Assembly (NCBI RefSeq): GCF_056746865.1
Contig: NZ_CM163382.1
Strand: one strand, 5' to 3'
DNA: 64,000 nt
Each line of letters opens with the position of its first letter. The first letter of the stretch is position 1. Positions 7,014 through 23,554 of the stretch are shown in pieces. The notes under the pieces were generated by a model. That model was not told the origin of the DNA, did not search any database, and saw only the letters and a program-made list of their open reading frames with translations. Position numbers and translations under genes: made by a program.

Positions 7014-7349
7014 AACACCTCTGAAATAATCTCTGTCTTTTCAATATAATACTATTATTTCAACTTGTGGGTAAGGGTATGAGATGCGAAGTGATGATCG
7101 ATAGTGATGCGAATAAGTGTTCGATTCAGATGCGATTATGCAATATGATTTTATGTGTGTTGCTTAATTATCATATTTCTTGCCCGTTCCCCGCCGCGCA
7201 GATCCGGTTTCCGGCTGAAGTGGATACAGACCTGATTTGTTGCTGAGTATCGGTAAAAGTGCGGCTTATAAGCTATTCTGAAACATGGCAAGTGAATCTG
7301 GGCGGTATAATTCCGGCAAATGTCATCTGTATTTAAAGGACGTGTGAGT

Positions 7350-11964: not shown

Positions 11965-12165
11965 GTGATGGTGATACGCAAAAAGAAGTGCAGGGACTGT
12001 GGTAACGCGATTACTCATAATACAGTTTGTTGCCCGTATTGTGGCGCTGTCGACCCCTTCGGTTATTACCGGAAGACCGATCGTCTGCTCTGTTTACTGA
12101 CGTTACTGCTGGTGCTGATTCTGGTTACCGTTTCAGGCGTCAGTGTATTTGTACTGTTGCAGTAG
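11965..12165 (+). CDS. small hypothetical protein with zinc-ribbon motif and C-terminal hydrophobic helix
   Basis: 66 aa; C-x2-C…C-x2-C followed by LLCLLTLLLVLILVTVSGVSVFVLL; no homolog recognised. Confidence 0.3.
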   Translation: MMVIRKKKCRDCGNAITHNTVCCPYCGAVDPFGYYRKTDRLLCLLTLLLVLILVTVSGVSVFVLLQ

Positions 12166-12249
12166 GTTACAGGGGAGGGATTATCAGGAATCGGCGGGGC
12201 AGAGCGACCCGCTGCGTTTGTTGTGCCAGACAGTAACGCACCGGCTCCC

Positions 12250-12325
12250 TGCAAAATGGTACCTGAATCAATCACAGTCAGGTATTCCGCCAATCCGTGA
12301 TCGAATCGAGCGGAATACTCAGCCC
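12250..12325. repeat. miniature remnant matching both termini of the IS21-family element at 18514-21142
   Basis: GCAAAATGGTACCTGAATCAATC matches the IS left end (GCAAAATGGCATCTGAATCGATC) and CCAATCCGTGATCGAATCGAGCGGAATAC matches the IS right end (CCAATCCGTGATCGAATAGAGCGGAATAC). Confidence 0.45.
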
Positions 12326-12497
12326 CGACAAATACGAGTCCCCTTCAGAAGATACAGGCCGGTAATGCCTGAACGCCTGCCCCTCTGTACACCATTCCCT
12401 TTTGATTTCGAATTCTTTGTTGCCGTTATACTGCTTAATGTTCCCGATCTTCCGGTGCACAGATAACACCGGAGTCATCGTAGCGCGGATTCAAGAT

Positions 12498-12710
12498 TCA
12501 GGTGACATATTTCCAGACGGAAGCCGGCACGCGATCGTAAAGTTTGTTCATTGTCAGTTCTGCCAGCCGGTTGTCAACGGCAGAGTTAAAGGCTTCCAGC
12601 TCCGCAGGGGTAAGTTTATAACGTGTGTGGGAAATCACTTTTTCCAGCGTCTCCCGGGATGAACAACGACGGAACTGATACAGCCAGTCTTCTTTGGTTT
12701 TAACTTCCAT
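12498..12710 (-). CDS. small hypothetical protein
   Basis: 70-aa ORF with coding-like composition (MEVKTKEDWLYQFRRCSSRETLEKVISHTRYKLTPAELEAF…); function unknown. Confidence 0.4.
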   Translation of the reverse strand: MEVKTKEDWLYQFRRCSSRETLEKVISHTRYKLTPAELEAFNSAVDNRLAELTMNKLYDRVPASVWKYVT

Positions 12711-17575: not shown

Positions 17576-17721
17576 AGTGGTTAATGGTCTGCGAAAAGGC
17601 AGCTGAATCTCTTCATCATGCAGAACGGAATTGCACACAACGGACTGATACTTCTCTGGCGGATGAGAGAGGGGAAGCATTTATGTCCGGGAAAAACCAC
17701 TTTATCTGACCATGCTGTTTT

Positions 17722-17786: not shown

Positions 17787-18515
17787 ATGAAACGACATCT
17801 GAACACCAGCTACAGGCTGGTATGGAATCACATTACGGGTACCCTGGTGGTGGCCTCCGAACTGGCCCGCTCACGGGGAAAACGCGCCGGTGTGGCGATT
17901 GCGCTGTCTCTTGCTGCTGTCACATCAGTCCCGGCACTGGCTGCTGACACGGTTGTACAGGCGGGAGAAACCGTGAGCGGCGGAACACTGACAAATCATG
18001 ACAACCAGATTGTATCCGGAACAGCTGATGGCGTGACTGTCAGTACCGGGCTTGAGCTGGGGCCGGACAGTGACGAAAACACCGGCGGGCAATGGATAAA
18101 AGCGGGTGGCACAGGCAGAAACACCACTGTCACCGCAAATGGTCGTCAGATTGTGCAGGCAGGAGGAACTGCCAGTGATACGGTTATTCGTGATGGCGGA
18201 GGGCAGAGCCTTAACGGACTGGCGGTGAACACCACGCTGGATAACAGAGGTGAGCAGTGGGTACACGGGGGAGGGAAAGCTGCCGGTACAATTATTAACC
18301 AGGATGGTTACCAGACCATAAAACATGGCGGACTGGCAACCGGAACCATCGTCAACACCGGTGCAGAAGGTGGTCCGGAGTCTGAAAATGTGTCCAGCGG
18401 TCAGATGGTCGGAGGGACGGCTGAATCCACCACCATCAACAAAAATGGCCGGCAGGTTATCTGGTCTTCGGGGATGGCACGGGACACCCTCATTTACGCC
18501 GGTGGTGACCAGACT
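17787..18515 (+). pseudogene. flu: antigen 43 (Ag43) autotransporter, 5' portion interrupted by an IS
   Basis: MKRHLNTSYRLVWNHITGTLVVASELARSRGKRAGVAIALSLAAVTSVPALAADTVVQ… matches the Ag43 signal peptide and passenger domain; identity ends at …YAGGDQT where IS sequence begins. Confidence 0.85.
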
Positions 18516-18716
18516 GCAAAATGGCATCTGAATCGATCGCAGTTTGGCATTCGAATCGATCATGATTTGGCATCCATCTCCGATCACAGTTTGGCATCAC
18601 AATCGATCACGATTTGGCATGCTTCCGATCATTGATTGGCATCCTGCCAGTCACTCCGGGAATTAACTCTTTTCACCACAGTCTCCATTGCCGTGTTTAA
18701 ACCAGTGGAGACGTCA

Positions 18717-20282
18717 ATGTCCAGAAAGAGAAAATCCAGGAGCACTATGGAAACCTGTTTTAAGATTCTTCAGCTCAAGTTCGACAAGAAGCTGACTAAC
18801 CGTTGTATCGGACTGACGTTACACATCAGCGCCTCAACCGTTTTTGAGGTTCTTGCCCGCTTCAAAGCCTCTTCTCTGTCATGGCCATTACCTGCTGATA
18901 TATCCCATGACACGCTGGAGAAACTCATTTTTCCGCCCAAAGACACCTTTGCATCAGAGCTTGTAATGCCTGACATGTTGTACCTCGATACGGAAATGAG
19001 AAAACCAGGTGTGACGCGGCAACTGTTGTGGATGGAATACAAGGCACAGGCGGGTAACAAAGCGATGGGATACTCGCACTTCTGCCGTTGCTACCGGGAG
19101 TGGAAAAAAACGCGACGTCTCTCCATGCGCCAGGAGCATCGTGCCGGCGAAAAGCTTTTTATCGACTTCTGTGGTCCTACGGTTCCTGTTATTAATCCGG
19201 ACACCGGTGAGATACGCCGCGTGGCAATCTTCGTGGCCGTAATGGGGGCGTCCAACTATACCTACGTTGAAGCGTGCGAAGGTCAGGACATGATGTCATG
19301 GTTAAATGCCCACAGCCGTTGCCTGACCTTCCTGGGCGGCGTACCGAAGCTGCTCATCCCCGATAACCTCAGAAGCGCAGTGAAAAAGGCCGATCGATAT
19401 GAGCCTGTCATCAACGACAGTTATCAGGCACTGGCTGAGCACTATGGCACGGTTATCATCCCGGCCCGACCACGCAAACCTAAAGATAAACCAAAAGCAG
19501 AAAACGGCGTCCTCATCGTCGAACGATGGCTTCTTGCCCGCATCCGTAATGAAACCTTCCACACGCTCAGGGCGCTGAATGCGCGCCTTAGGGAGTTACT
19601 GACAGACATGAATAACCGGCCAATGAAGGGGTACGGCAATCAAACCCGTGCAGAACGCTTCCGCATACTGGATGCGCCAGCACTCTCTCCGCTGCCTCTG
19701 GCACCTTATGAATACACGGAATACAAAGCTGTGAAGGTTGGCCCTGACTACCACGTTGAATATGCCCGTCACTGGTACTCCGTTCCACACGAACTGGTCG
19801 GTCAGCGTCTGTCACTGAAGGCGGGGCAGTCGGTGGTACAGCTCTGGCACAAGGGGCAGTGTGTGGCGCAACATCCGCGCAGCACACATGAATATAAACA
19901 CACAACCAATCCGCTTCACATGCCAGAGCGCCACCGGCAGCACGGGACATGGACACCGGAACGCCTGATCGAGCAGGGAAAACGTACGGGCCCGTCCACA
20001 GGCCGGGTGGTTGAATCCATGCTGAAGGCAAAACCCCATCCGGAACTGGCTTATCGTGCAGTTCTGGGGCTGCTGGCACTTCAGAAAAAATACGGCCCGG
20101 AACGGCTGGAAAAGGCCTGTTACGTTGCCCTGCACTATAACGCCCCTGACAGACGCTTTATCGACAATCTGCTGCGTCACCATCGGGAGAACCTGGAGCT
20201 TCCATTATCCCGCCAGGGCGAACAACATCCGGCATATGCTTCAGAGCATGAAAACCTGCGTGGTCCGGGCTACTACCACTGA
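18717..20282 (+). CDS. istA: IS21-family transposase IstA
   Basis: Large ORF 18636..20282 with integrase-core features (…LFIDFCGPTVPV…); the start codon is uncertain (18636, 18717 or 18747). Confidence 0.75.
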   Translation: MSRKRKSRSTMETCFKILQLKFDKKLTNRCIGLTLHISASTVFEVLARFKASSLSWPLPADISHDTLEKLIFPPKDTFASELVMPDMLYLDTEMRKPGVTRQLLWMEYKAQAGNKAMGYSHFCRCYREWKKTRRLSMRQEHRAGEKLFIDFCGPTVPVINPDTGEIRRVAIFVAVMGASNYTYVEACEGQDMMSWLNAHSRCLTFLGGVPKLLIPDNLRSAVKKADRYEPVINDSYQALAEHYGTVIIPARPRKPKDKPKAENGVLIVERWLLARIRNETFHTLRALNARLRELLTDMNNRPMKGYGNQTRAERFRILDAPALSPLPLAPYEYTEYKAVKVGPDYHVEYARHWYSVPHELVGQRLSLKAGQSVVQLWHKGQCVAQHPRSTHEYKHTTNPLHMPERHRQHGTWTPERLIEQGKRTGPSTGRVVESMLKAKPHPELAYRAVLGLLALQKKYGPERLEKACYVALHYNAPDRRFIDNLLRHHRENLELPLSRQGEQHPAYASEHENLRGPGYYH

Positions 20283-20298
20283 CAGAAGGAACAACAGT

Positions 20299-21054
20299 AT
20301 GAGTGATAACCTGTTAAACAAACTGACCCAACTGAAACTCCCGGCGATGGCCGGGAGCCTGATACGGCAGCGGGAAACGCCTCAGACCTACGACGAACTG
20401 TCGTTCGAGGAAAGGCTGACGCTGCTGGTTGATGACGAGCTTCTGAGCAGGGAAAACAGCCGTGTGGCACGGTTGAGAAAAAATGCCGGCCTGAAATACC
20501 AGGCAACACCGGAAGGGCTGCGCTATCCGGCCTCAAGAGGTCTGCGGGCTGAACAGATGAGAGAACTGCTGAACGGCCACTACATAACCCACAGGAAAAA
20601 CCTGCTGATAACCGGTCCGACAGGATGTGGCAAGAGCTGGATAGCCAATGCGCTGGGCGAACAGGCATGTCGACAGAAACACAGCGTCCGGTACTGTAGA
20701 ACCGGGCGATTACTGGAACAACTGGCTCAGGGACGTGTTGATGGCAGCTGGCTGAAATATCTGAAACAGTTGCAAAAAATACAGGTTCTAATCCTGGACG
20801 ATCTGGGGCTGGAACAGTTAAGTAACGCCCAGTGTAATGACCTTCTGGAGCTCATAGAGGATCGTTACGGACAAAGCAGCACGATAGTGGTAAGCCAGTT
20901 CCCGGTAGATAAATGGCATGGTCTGATGGAGAACCCAACAACAGCAGATGCCATCCTGGACAGACTGGTACATAACTCACACCGGGTGGTCCTTCAGGGA
21001 GAGTCACTGAGGAAAAATCCCCCGGTAGTGGAAAGCAGCGAAAAAACGCGTTAA
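20299..21054 (+). CDS. istB: IS21-family helper ATPase IstB
   Basis: 251 aa from the ATG at 20299; Walker A GPTGCGKSW and Walker B VLILDDLG. Confidence 0.85.
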   Translation: MSDNLLNKLTQLKLPAMAGSLIRQRETPQTYDELSFEERLTLLVDDELLSRENSRVARLRKNAGLKYQATPEGLRYPASRGLRAEQMRELLNGHYITHRKNLLITGPTGCGKSWIANALGEQACRQKHSVRYCRTGRLLEQLAQGRVDGSWLKYLKQLQKIQVLILDDLGLEQLSNAQCNDLLELIEDRYGQSSTIVVSQFPVDKWHGLMENPTTADAILDRLVHNSHRVVLQGESLRKNPPVVESSEKTR

Positions 21055-21144
21055 AAAGCGGTAGAAAAAGTTAAGTTCCCGGTTGATCGAATGGATGCGA
21101 ATCGCTGATCGGACTTCGATGCCAATCCGTGATCGAATAGAGCG

Positions 21145-23554
21145 GAATACGCACCAGACGGTACACGGAGAGGCACATAACACCCGACTGGAGGGGGGTA
21201 ACCAGTATGTACACAACGGTGGCACGGCAACAGAGACGCTGATAAACCGTGATGGCTGGCAGATGATTAAGGAAGGAGGAACTGCCGCGCATACCACCAT
21301 CAACCAGAAAGGAAAGCTGCAGGTGAATGCCGGCGGTAAAGCGTCTGATGTCACCCAGAACACGGGCGGTGCACTGGTTACCAGTACAGCTGCAACCGTC
21401 ACCGGCACAAACCGCCTGGGAGCATTCTCCGTTGTGGCGGGTAAGGCTGATAATGTCGTACTGGAAAATGGCGGACGTCTGGATGTGCTGAGCGGACACA
21501 CAGCCACTAATACCCGTGTGGATGATGGCGGAACGCTGGATGTCCGCAACGGTGGTGCCGCCACCACCGTATCCATGGGGAATGGCGGTGTACTGCTGGC
21601 CGATTCCGGTGCCGCTGTCAGTGGTACCCGGAGCGACGGAACGGCATTCCATATCGGAGGCGGTCAGGCGGATGCCCTGATGCTGGAAAAAGGCAGTTCA
21701 TTCACGCTGAACGCCGGTGATACGGCCACGGATACCACGGTAAATGGCGGATTGTTCACTGCCAGAGGGGGCTCGCTGGCGGGCACCACCACGCTGAATA
21801 ACGGTGCCACGCTTATCCTTTCCGGGAAAACGGTAAATAACGATACCCTGACCATCCGTGAAGGTGATGCACTCCTGCAGGGAGGCGCTCTTACCGGTAA
21901 CGGCAGGGTGGAAAAATCAGGAAGTGGCACACTCACTGTCAGCAACACCACACTCACCCAGAAAACCGTCAACCTGAATGAAGGCACGCTGACGCTGAAC
22001 AACAGTACCGTCACCACGGATGTCATCGCTCAGCGCGGCACGGCCCTGAAGCTGACCGGCAGCACAGTGCTGAACGGTGCCATTGACCCCACGAATGTCA
22101 TCCTGACATCCGGTGCCACCTGGAATATCCCCGATAACGCCACGGTTCAGTCGGTGGTGGATGACCTCAGCCATGCCGGACAGATTCATTTCACCTCCGC
22201 CCGCACAGGGAAGTTCGTTCCGACAACTCTGCAGGTGAAAAACCTGAACGGGCAGAATGGCACCATCAGCCTGCGTGTACGCCCGGATATGGCGCAGAAC
22301 AATGCTGACAGACTGGTCATTGACGGTGGCAGGGCAACCGGAAAAACCATCCTGAATCTGGTGAACGCCGGCAACAGTGGTACGGGGCTGGCGACCACCG
22401 GTAAGGGTATTCAGGTGGTTGAGGCCATTAACGGTGCCACCACGGAGGAAGGGGCTTTTGTCCAGGGGAATATGTTGCAGGCCGGGGCCTTTAACTACAC
22501 CCTCAACCGGGACAGTGATGAGAGCTGGTATCTGCGCAGTGAAGAACGTTATCGTGCTGAAGTCCCCCTGTACGCCTCCATGCTGACACAGGCAATGGAC
22601 TATGACCGGATTCTGGCAGGCTCCCGCAGCCATCAGACCGGTGTAAACGGTGAAAATAACAGCGTCCGTCTCAGCATTCAGGGCGGCCATCTCGGTCACG
22701 ATAACAACGGCGGTATTGCCCGTGGGGCCACGCCGGAAAGCAGCGGCAGCTATGGCTTCGTCCGTCTGGAGAGTGACCTGCTCAGAACAGAGGTCGCCGG
22801 TATGTCACTGACGACAGGAGTGTATGGTGCTGCAGGCCATTCTTCCGTTGATGTTAAGGATGATGACGGCTCCCGCGCCGGCACGGTCCGGGATGATGCC
22901 GGCAGCCTGGGCGGATATATGAACCTGACACACACCTCCTCCGGCCTGTGGGCTGACATTGTGGCACAGGGAACCCGCCACAGTATGAAAGCGTCATCGG
23001 GCAATAACGACTTCCGCGCACGGGGCTGGGGCTGGCTGGGCTCACTGGAAACCGGTCTGCCCTTCAGTATCACTGACAACCTGATGCTGGAGCCACGGCT
23101 GCAGTACACCTGGCAGGGGCTTTCGCTGGATGACGGTAAGGACAACGCCGGTTATGTGAAGTTCGGGCATGGCAGTGCACAACATGTGCGTGCCGGTTTC
23201 CGTCTGGGCAGCCACAACGATATGACCTTTGGTGAAGGCACCTCATCCCGTGCCCCCCTGCGTGACAGTGCAAAACACAGTGTGCGTGAACTGCCGGTGA
23301 ACTGGTGGGTACAGCCTTCCGTTATCCGCACCTTCAGCTCCCGGGGTGATATGCGTGTGGGGACCTCCACCGCAGGCAGCGGGATGACGTTCTCACCCTC
23401 ACAGAATGGCACTTCACTGGATCTGCAGGCAGGACTGGAAGCCCGTGTCCGGGAAAATATCACCCTGGGCGTTCAGGCCGGTTATGCCCACAGCGTCAGC
23501 GGCAGCAGCGCTGAAGGCTATAACGGTCAGGCCACGCTGAATGTGACCTTCTGA
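21145..23554 (+). pseudogene. flu: antigen 43 (Ag43) autotransporter, 3' portion (rest of passenger domain plus beta-barrel)
   Basis: Reading frame resumes with …HQTVHGEAHNTRLEGGNQYVHNGGTATE… and continues to the canonical autotransporter C-terminus …GYNGQATLNVTF. Confidence 0.85.

Follow-up and report, generated by a model that had tools for sequence, protein, structure and literature searches.

The intergenic segment at positions 12250-12321 (plus strand) of the window, by which we refer to the whole analysed stretch of 64,000 nucleotides, is probably a fossilized miniature element (MITE) that is non-autonomous and derives from an ISSso4-like insertion sequence (IS) of the IS21 family. This assignment draws on features that are directly observed, namely the anatomy of the 72-bp segment, its insertion relative to empty sites, a family of related elements at other sites which carry target duplications, and an intact partner IS in its neighbourhood.

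The intact IS in agn43/flu

Transposase could be supplied in trans by a full-length IS21-family IS of 2639 bp (18515-21153, plus strand), which interrupts agn43/flu at a distance of 6.2 kb from the 72-bp element, as had been recognized in the preliminary description. Its istA and istB are both intact. The element is labelled as ISSso4 family by PGAP, and identical copies in RefSeq are listed as 'IS21-like element ISSso4 family'. It is flanked by two copies of the sequence CCAGAC (18509-18514 and 21154-21159, both on the plus strand), which is found only once in the uninterrupted agn43 allele GGTGGTGACCAGACGGTACACGG of strain 2016C-3878 (L001), and the IS has therefore duplicated 6 bp of its target. 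The transposase encoded by istA (18747-20282, plus strand) comprises 511 amino acids (NF033546, 285.8 bits with a cutoff of 160) and the helper AAA+ ATPase encoded by istB (20299-21054, plus strand) comprises 251 (NF038214, 257.8 bits with a cutoff of 200).

Both ends of the IS are composed of repeat units in a strongly asymmetric arrangement (18515-18651 compared to 21085-21153). An array of six units of 22-24 bp forms the left end (18515-18651, plus strand), where TGGCAT cores are found at positions 8, 31, 54, 78, 101 and 123 of the IS, whereas the right end contains three units with cores at positions 8, 30 and 54; its terminal unit, TATTCCGCT, is devoid of the TGGCAT core. By analogy to the system described in PMC10122671, the units of the left end are presumed binding sites of IstA. 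At each end, a block that is conserved in the second repeat, CGATCnnnnTTTGGCAT, extends over positions 19-36.

Anatomy of the 72-bp element

The 72-bp element starts with TGCAAAATGG and ends with GGAATACTCA (complete sequence of 12250-12321: TGCAAAATGGTACCTGAATCAATCACAGTCAGGTATTCCGCCAATCCGTGATCGAATCGAGCGGAATACTCA). It has no coding capacity and constitutes a precise insertion relative to empty sites. Its relationship to the IS was detected in a repeat search of the window, where positions 12249-12287 pair with 18514-18552 (82% of 39 nt) and positions 12289-12321 with 21121-21153 (94% of 33 nt). In ungapped counts, 31 of 38 nucleotides at the left terminus and 31 of 33 at the right terminus are identical to the respective ends of the flu-inserted IS, compared to best values of 24 of 38 and 22 of 33 in 30 shuffles of the whole 64-kb window. 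Similarly, a two-anchor pattern consisting of the left tip, a gap of 20-50 nt and the right tip has a single match in the window and none in 100 shuffles. The similarity of both arms to the IS ends is far beyond chance. The alignment to both ends that had been proposed as a check of the preliminary description has thus revealed similarity at either side that exceeds every shuffle, and its central claim, that both termini of an IS21-family element are joined without a transposase in between, is borne out. The numbers given there (19 of 23 and 28 of 29 nucleotides) are close to, but not identical with, our recount over the same spans, which yields 20 of 23 and 27 of 29, and the end of the segment, placed at 12325, was set 4 nt too far, with the true end residing at 12321.

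The outer tips of the element are TG and CA, as in the IS, with TGCAAAATGG...ATACTCA corresponding to TGCAAAATGG...ATACGCA. This orientation bears on the proposal that the segment reflects a fortuitous similarity or else the relic of an IRR-IRL junction between tandem IS copies, for which the short length of the matches is the sole argument. Fortuitous similarity is refuted by the shuffles, and the order with IRL first, IRR last and TG...CA in the outermost position is the opposite of what abutted IRR and IRL ends would produce, which leaves a negligible probability for either version.

The segment is divided into two halves of 36 nt each. The left arm (12250-12285, plus strand) combines the terminal repeat L1 with the second conserved block L2, and 29 of its 36 positions match the IS in a manual count. 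The right arm (12286-12321, plus strand) contains the R2 block (15 of 17 identical) followed by the terminal repeat R1, and its last 33 nt include the 31 positions shared with the right end of the IS. Since the element consists of 36 plus 36 bp, the L2 and R2 blocks abut without overlap. Between the arms there is no coding sequence, with spurious overlapping open reading frames as the only ones found, and no gene is annotated under the match in RefSeq genomes. The two arms differ in their preservation. The right arm is well preserved, whereas on the left the L1 block shares 20 of 23 positions with the IS and the L2 block only 12 of 17 (CAATCACAGTCAGGTAT compared to CGATCGCAGTTTGGCAT), where the changes have converted GATC to AATC and TTTGGCAT to TCAGGTAT.

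Insertion site and neighbourhood

The element is located between two convergent genes, a small zinc-ribbon/membrane open reading frame of 66 amino acids upstream (11965-12165, plus strand) and hha downstream (12498-12710, minus strand; 70 amino acids, NF008191, 102.9 bits), both part of an island that adjoins a tRNA-Phe gene. Paralogous islands in the strains M6 and CUVET19-2242 (L002 and L004) define the empty site, which reads ...GTAACGCAC CGGATCCCCGG TAAATACGAG with nothing in between, whereas the occupied site in the window and in ATCC 43896 reads ...CACCGG(C/A)TCCC, followed by the 72 bp and GCCCCGACAAATACGAG (alignment A1). The additional sequence begins exactly at the TG tip and ends exactly at the CA tip, and the two paralogous islands lack precisely 72 bp. 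Relative to these empty sites, the segment is a discrete insertion.

At the borders we find a decayed target duplication of about 5 bp, with CTCCC on the left (12245-12249, plus strand; ATCCC in other carriers and CGGATCCCCGG in the empty site) and GCCCC on the right (12322-12326, plus strand; ACCCC in L082). The two copies agree in 3 of 5 positions in the window and in 4 of 5 in the best carrier L082 (ATCCC/ACCCC).

The same alignment contains two other length differences. Two islands (L003 and L005) contain about 100 bp of unrelated sequence at the position of the miniature element (columns about 130-262 of A1), and three (L002, L004 and L005) carry an additional segment of about 67 bp beside the stop codon of hha, with an internal inverted repeat CCTGGTTCCCGACAACAGGAAC (columns 379-445). 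These segments may be other small indel elements.

The placement between convergent genes and its retention in about 1,500 genomes could also suggest that the sequence was recruited for a structural function, such as an RNA hairpin or a terminator that lies between the zinc-ribbon reading frame and hha, and was kept for that role. The fold of the minus-strand RNA, with an energy of -33.3 kcal/mol and a z-score of -2.18, would be in line with this assumption, but the z-score of the plus strand is only -1.55, a T-run is missing and no terminator is predicted over the element, the sole prediction being located at 12355-12371. The segment also shows no match in Rfam, its arms are gathering substitutions and the paralogous islands do without it, which together render a structural role very unlikely.

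Distribution and age of the 72-bp type

Sequences matching the 72-bp element with at least 80% coverage are found in about 1,577 of 5,426 complete E. coli genomes, and in about 1,505 of these 5,426 genomes, including CFT073, it resides in the same context of 571 bp. Island lineages that are only about 92% identical over the 571-bp region share the element (H70). The full-length IS, in contrast, is present in only 225 genomes. From this difference between about 1,500 carriers of the element at the same locus and the 225 of them with a full-length IS, we conclude that the miniature predates the neighbouring copy in flu and was not derived from it, contrary to the origin implied in the preliminary description. 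The identity of only 82% in its left arm equally identifies the element as older than the flu-inserted IS.

The junction that characterizes the 72-bp type was found in a single context in complete genomes, and all metagenome copies of 71 or 72 bp share the same flanks. The copy itself thus gives no sign of having moved as a miniature. This uniqueness would be expected if a full-length IS had inserted at the site and lost its interior by a later illegitimate deletion, in which case the 72 bp would never have moved in their present form. Such deletion in situ would, however, have to leave exactly two arms of 36 bp with both repeat blocks, and no full-length or intermediate copy of the IS is found at the site in any of the 5,426 complete E. 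coli genomes when searched with a chimeric query composed of the left flank and the first 186 bp of the IS (at least 80% coverage). The best match of this query (H289) was discarded as an unrelated insertion, in which the IS resides in an Rhs element and next to a flank that is only similar to that of the 72-bp element. In this Rhs element of E. coli O177:H21 (L107:3500-3520), the sequence to the left of a full-length IS, CGACAGTCAGCACCGGCTGG, agrees with that of the miniature, ACAGTAACGCACCGGCTCCC, at about 16 of 21 positions, a likeness that could be a coincidence or hint at a target preference.

Outside of E. coli genomes, the two-anchor scan of GTDB species representatives gave a single match, located on a contig of a 'Collinsella' metagenome-assembled genome with the context of an E. 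coli plasmid. As this match is probably a contamination, it lends no support to an occurrence of the element beyond E. coli and its plasmids. The same scan of viral contigs gave no match.

A family of miniature elements with 61-89 bp

Elements of the same architecture and with sizes between 61 and 89 bp are found in at least ten other insertion contexts in E. coli, at one to three copies per genome. The contexts were sorted by length and flanking sequence from the results of a BLAST search with the 72-bp sequence, from 92 metagenome loci identified in the two-anchor scan and from copies in complete genomes. This search, which follows a suggestion made together with the preliminary description, has uncovered target duplications of 5-7 bp in eight contexts, seven of them perfect, compared to 6 bp in the parent IS. 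Among the shorter types, the flanking duplications are GTTATGA for an element of 64 bp (L076/L087), GTGATAG for one of 65 bp (L075) and ATTTGT for one of 68 bp (L015). Another 65-bp element (L008), which is found in about 800 genomes, is bordered by CGTACT and CGTAAT, and its empty site, GGTCATG CGTAAT GATT, is preserved in L011 and L012 (alignment A2). The longer types are associated with the duplications ACATAA (89 bp, L014/L036, including EPEC E2348/69), CGCTGC (89 bp, L016/L077), CAGAG (88 bp, L097) and AATAAT (89 bp, L114). For the first of these longer types the empty site was identified in L108 (alignment A3), so that beyond the 72-bp locus empty sites are verified for a 65-bp and an 89-bp type. 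The part of the island that would contain the site of the 65-bp type is absent from the window.

The most informative members in this respect are the elements of 88 and 89 bp. Their architecture, L1-L2-L3 joined to R2-R1, has a junction that is equal within 1 nt at four unrelated sites with four different duplications. Since random deletion would not hit the same point repeatedly, transposition as a miniature is the economical reading for these copies, and the presence of related elements with a shared junction at several sites, each with its own duplication, also weighs against deletion in situ as an account of the 72-bp element.

Other observations point in the opposite direction. The junction points vary among size classes, and since the short types differ in the left repeat that is joined, some of them may stem from in-place deletion or from slippage between repeat units. 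Two elements of 65 bp, one found on 63 plasmids (L007) and the other in L065, are not flanked by any duplication, which counts against their transposition as miniatures, and no empty site for the plasmid copy was found among 72,556 plasmids. Internal deletion derivatives of the IS also exist, as illustrated by a copy of 541 bp in rspA of E. coli S1-CAM-02-A (L113:1501-2041), in which the right end, all left repeats and 219 nt from the start of istA are retained. This copy, which shows that larger non-autonomous derivatives are likewise generated from the IS, is flanked by a direct repeat of 10 bp, CCACCCTCAA, longer than the 5-7 bp found elsewhere. Weighing both sides, we consider deletion in situ to be an unlikely though serious competitor. 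The preliminary description had left the choice between an internally deleted copy and a MITE-like derivative, and it is the latter that gains support from the 61-89-bp family and its duplications.

A metagenome contig (L100:1301-1365) contains a 65-bp element whose left flank corresponds to the plasmid locus L007 and its right flank to the chromosomal locus L008. Either two copies have recombined or the contig was assembled as a chimera; recombination might also account for the plasmid copy without a duplication.

Other IS21-like traces in the window

Two further sequences in the window resemble IS21-family ends. At positions 7080-7142 on the minus strand, with its tip at 7142, we find an isolated end, TGCATAATCGCATCTGAATCGAACACTTATTCGCATCACTATCGATCATCACTTCGCATC, that belongs to a related IS21-family element. 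It is identical to the left end of the IS at 28 of 38 positions and contains repeat units of its own of the type GATC...TTCGCAT. A partner for this end was not found within the window. The second sequence, TGCGAAAAGGCAGCTGAATC at positions 17590-17609, is located just downstream of three GATC sites upstream of agn43 and shows two mismatches to the 20-mer pattern of the left IS tip, for which 0.09 matches with up to three mismatches are expected by chance per window. The resemblance may be coincidental, or the agn43 leader may contain an ancient IS21-like tip.

Discussion

The properties of the 72-bp element and its relatives can be viewed in light of the mechanism of IS21-family transposition. 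In case of IS5376, IstA forms a tetramer that synapses the two ends and that requires two complete direct repeats per end, at a distance of 23 bp (PMC10122671). The TGGCAT cores of the IS described here are equally spaced by 23 bp, and the 72-bp element is exactly twice 36 bp long. L1 and L2 are complete in the elements of 88 and 89 bp. In those of 64-65 bp, the inner blocks of the left and right end share about 7 bp at a TTGG|CCAA palindrome. The sizes of the miniatures thus cluster at the minimum that retains two repeats per end, which, if the requirements of IS5376 apply, is what selection for mobilisable derivatives would be expected to yield. From the rule of two repeats per end, a minimal size of about twice 36-46 bp would be expected, which is the range observed here. 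The resemblance to the terminal repeats of IS21 and IS5376 extends to the presence of two repeats per end at a distance of about 23 bp and to the terminal CA, but the sequences are unrelated and binding of IstA to the blocks of our elements is putative.

In the proposed sequence of events, IstA from an autonomous copy would have bound to two repeats at each end of a derivative from which 2.5 kb with istA and istB had been lost, leaving two abutting arms (L1 and L2 joined to R2 and R1). Cleavage by IstA at the terminal CA-3' and integration with the help of IstB would have duplicated 5-7 bp of the target. A single old insertion between the zinc-ribbon reading frame and hha of the tRNA-associated island, into which the element presumably arrived as a miniature, would since have been inherited with the island, while the L2 block and the target duplication decayed. 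Despite the intact istA and istB at a distance of 6 kb, the copy is probably a poor substrate by now. The decay of L2 (12 of 17) and of the duplication (3 of 5) and the lack of a second location point to a fossil that is best read as no longer mobilised, which makes the suggestion in the preliminary description that it could still be mobilised in trans unlikely.

With the ISSso4-like IS in the window (18515-21153), the 72-bp element shares the termini (TGCAAAATGG.../...GGAATAC(G/T)CA), the repeat blocks and the TG...CA ends, and the duplications of 5-7 bp in the miniature family match the 6 bp of the IS. In contrast, it is 72 instead of 2639 bp long, the identity of its left arm amounts to only 82%, and of the six left and three right units it retains two each. 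Although TG...CA termini and multiple repeats at a distance of about 23 bp are typical for IS21-family ends, the element is not itself an IS of this family since the pair of istA and istB is absent. Compared to the 541-bp copy in rspA, both elements have kept the two ends, lost the interior and are flanked by direct repeats, which are decayed at the 72-bp element, but the larger derivative preserves part of istA and all terminal repeat units, whereas the 72-bp element is confined to minimal repeat blocks.

The 72-bp element has most of the properties that define a MITE, which include its small size without a transposase gene, termini that are homologous to both ends of an IS and a precise empty site. 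Occurrence at several unrelated loci is a property of the family with its at least ten contexts and not of the 72-bp type, which is found in one. As in other bacterial MITEs such as Correia/CREE, ERIC and MITEAba12 (PMC10969869, PMC3184786), we find short, non-coding, intergenic sequences with terminal inverted repeats, target duplications, a polymorphic presence and a dependence on transposase in trans, which is putative in our case. The elements described here are distinguished by their much shorter length of 61-89 bp, by their much lower number of 1-3 copies per genome and by a parental IS21-family IS that depends on two proteins, IstA and IstB. MITEEc1, which is reported in most E. coli and also in Salmonella, is, to judge from this distribution, probably a different element. 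In the literature, ISfinder being outside of this search, we found no description of an IS21-derived MITE, and the reviews PMC10969869 and PMC3184786 do not mention any.

We thus tentatively propose, as a possibility that we rank below an even chance, that the elements of 61-89 bp constitute a family of IS21-derived MITEs, which would be the first non-autonomous derivatives reported for the two-protein system of IstA and IstB, and whose sizes (72 as 2 x 36 and 89 as about 2 x 46) would reflect the minimal substrate with two repeats per end. For a tetrameric transpososome, the synapsis of ends separated by only 65-89 bp is sterically awkward, which counts against transposition as a miniature. 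If the proposal is correct, the IstA tetramer, which wraps two supercoiled ends in the normal case, would have to operate on ends at this short distance, perhaps by pairing those that belong to different copies or to sister chromosomes.

For the window, our assignment implies that an unannotated intergenic stretch beside hha, in a pathogenicity-type island that is widespread in E. coli, is probably transposon debris, and that the 72-bp segment would be neither a regulatory element nor a sign of recent activity. All miniature copies are left unlabelled by current genome annotation pipelines. Collectively, the family would offer natural minimal substrates for IS21-family transposition, in line with the need of IstA for two repeats per end that is established for IS5376, and its members may serve as portable stretches of homology through which islands and plasmids recombine, as is hinted at by the chimeric metagenome contig.
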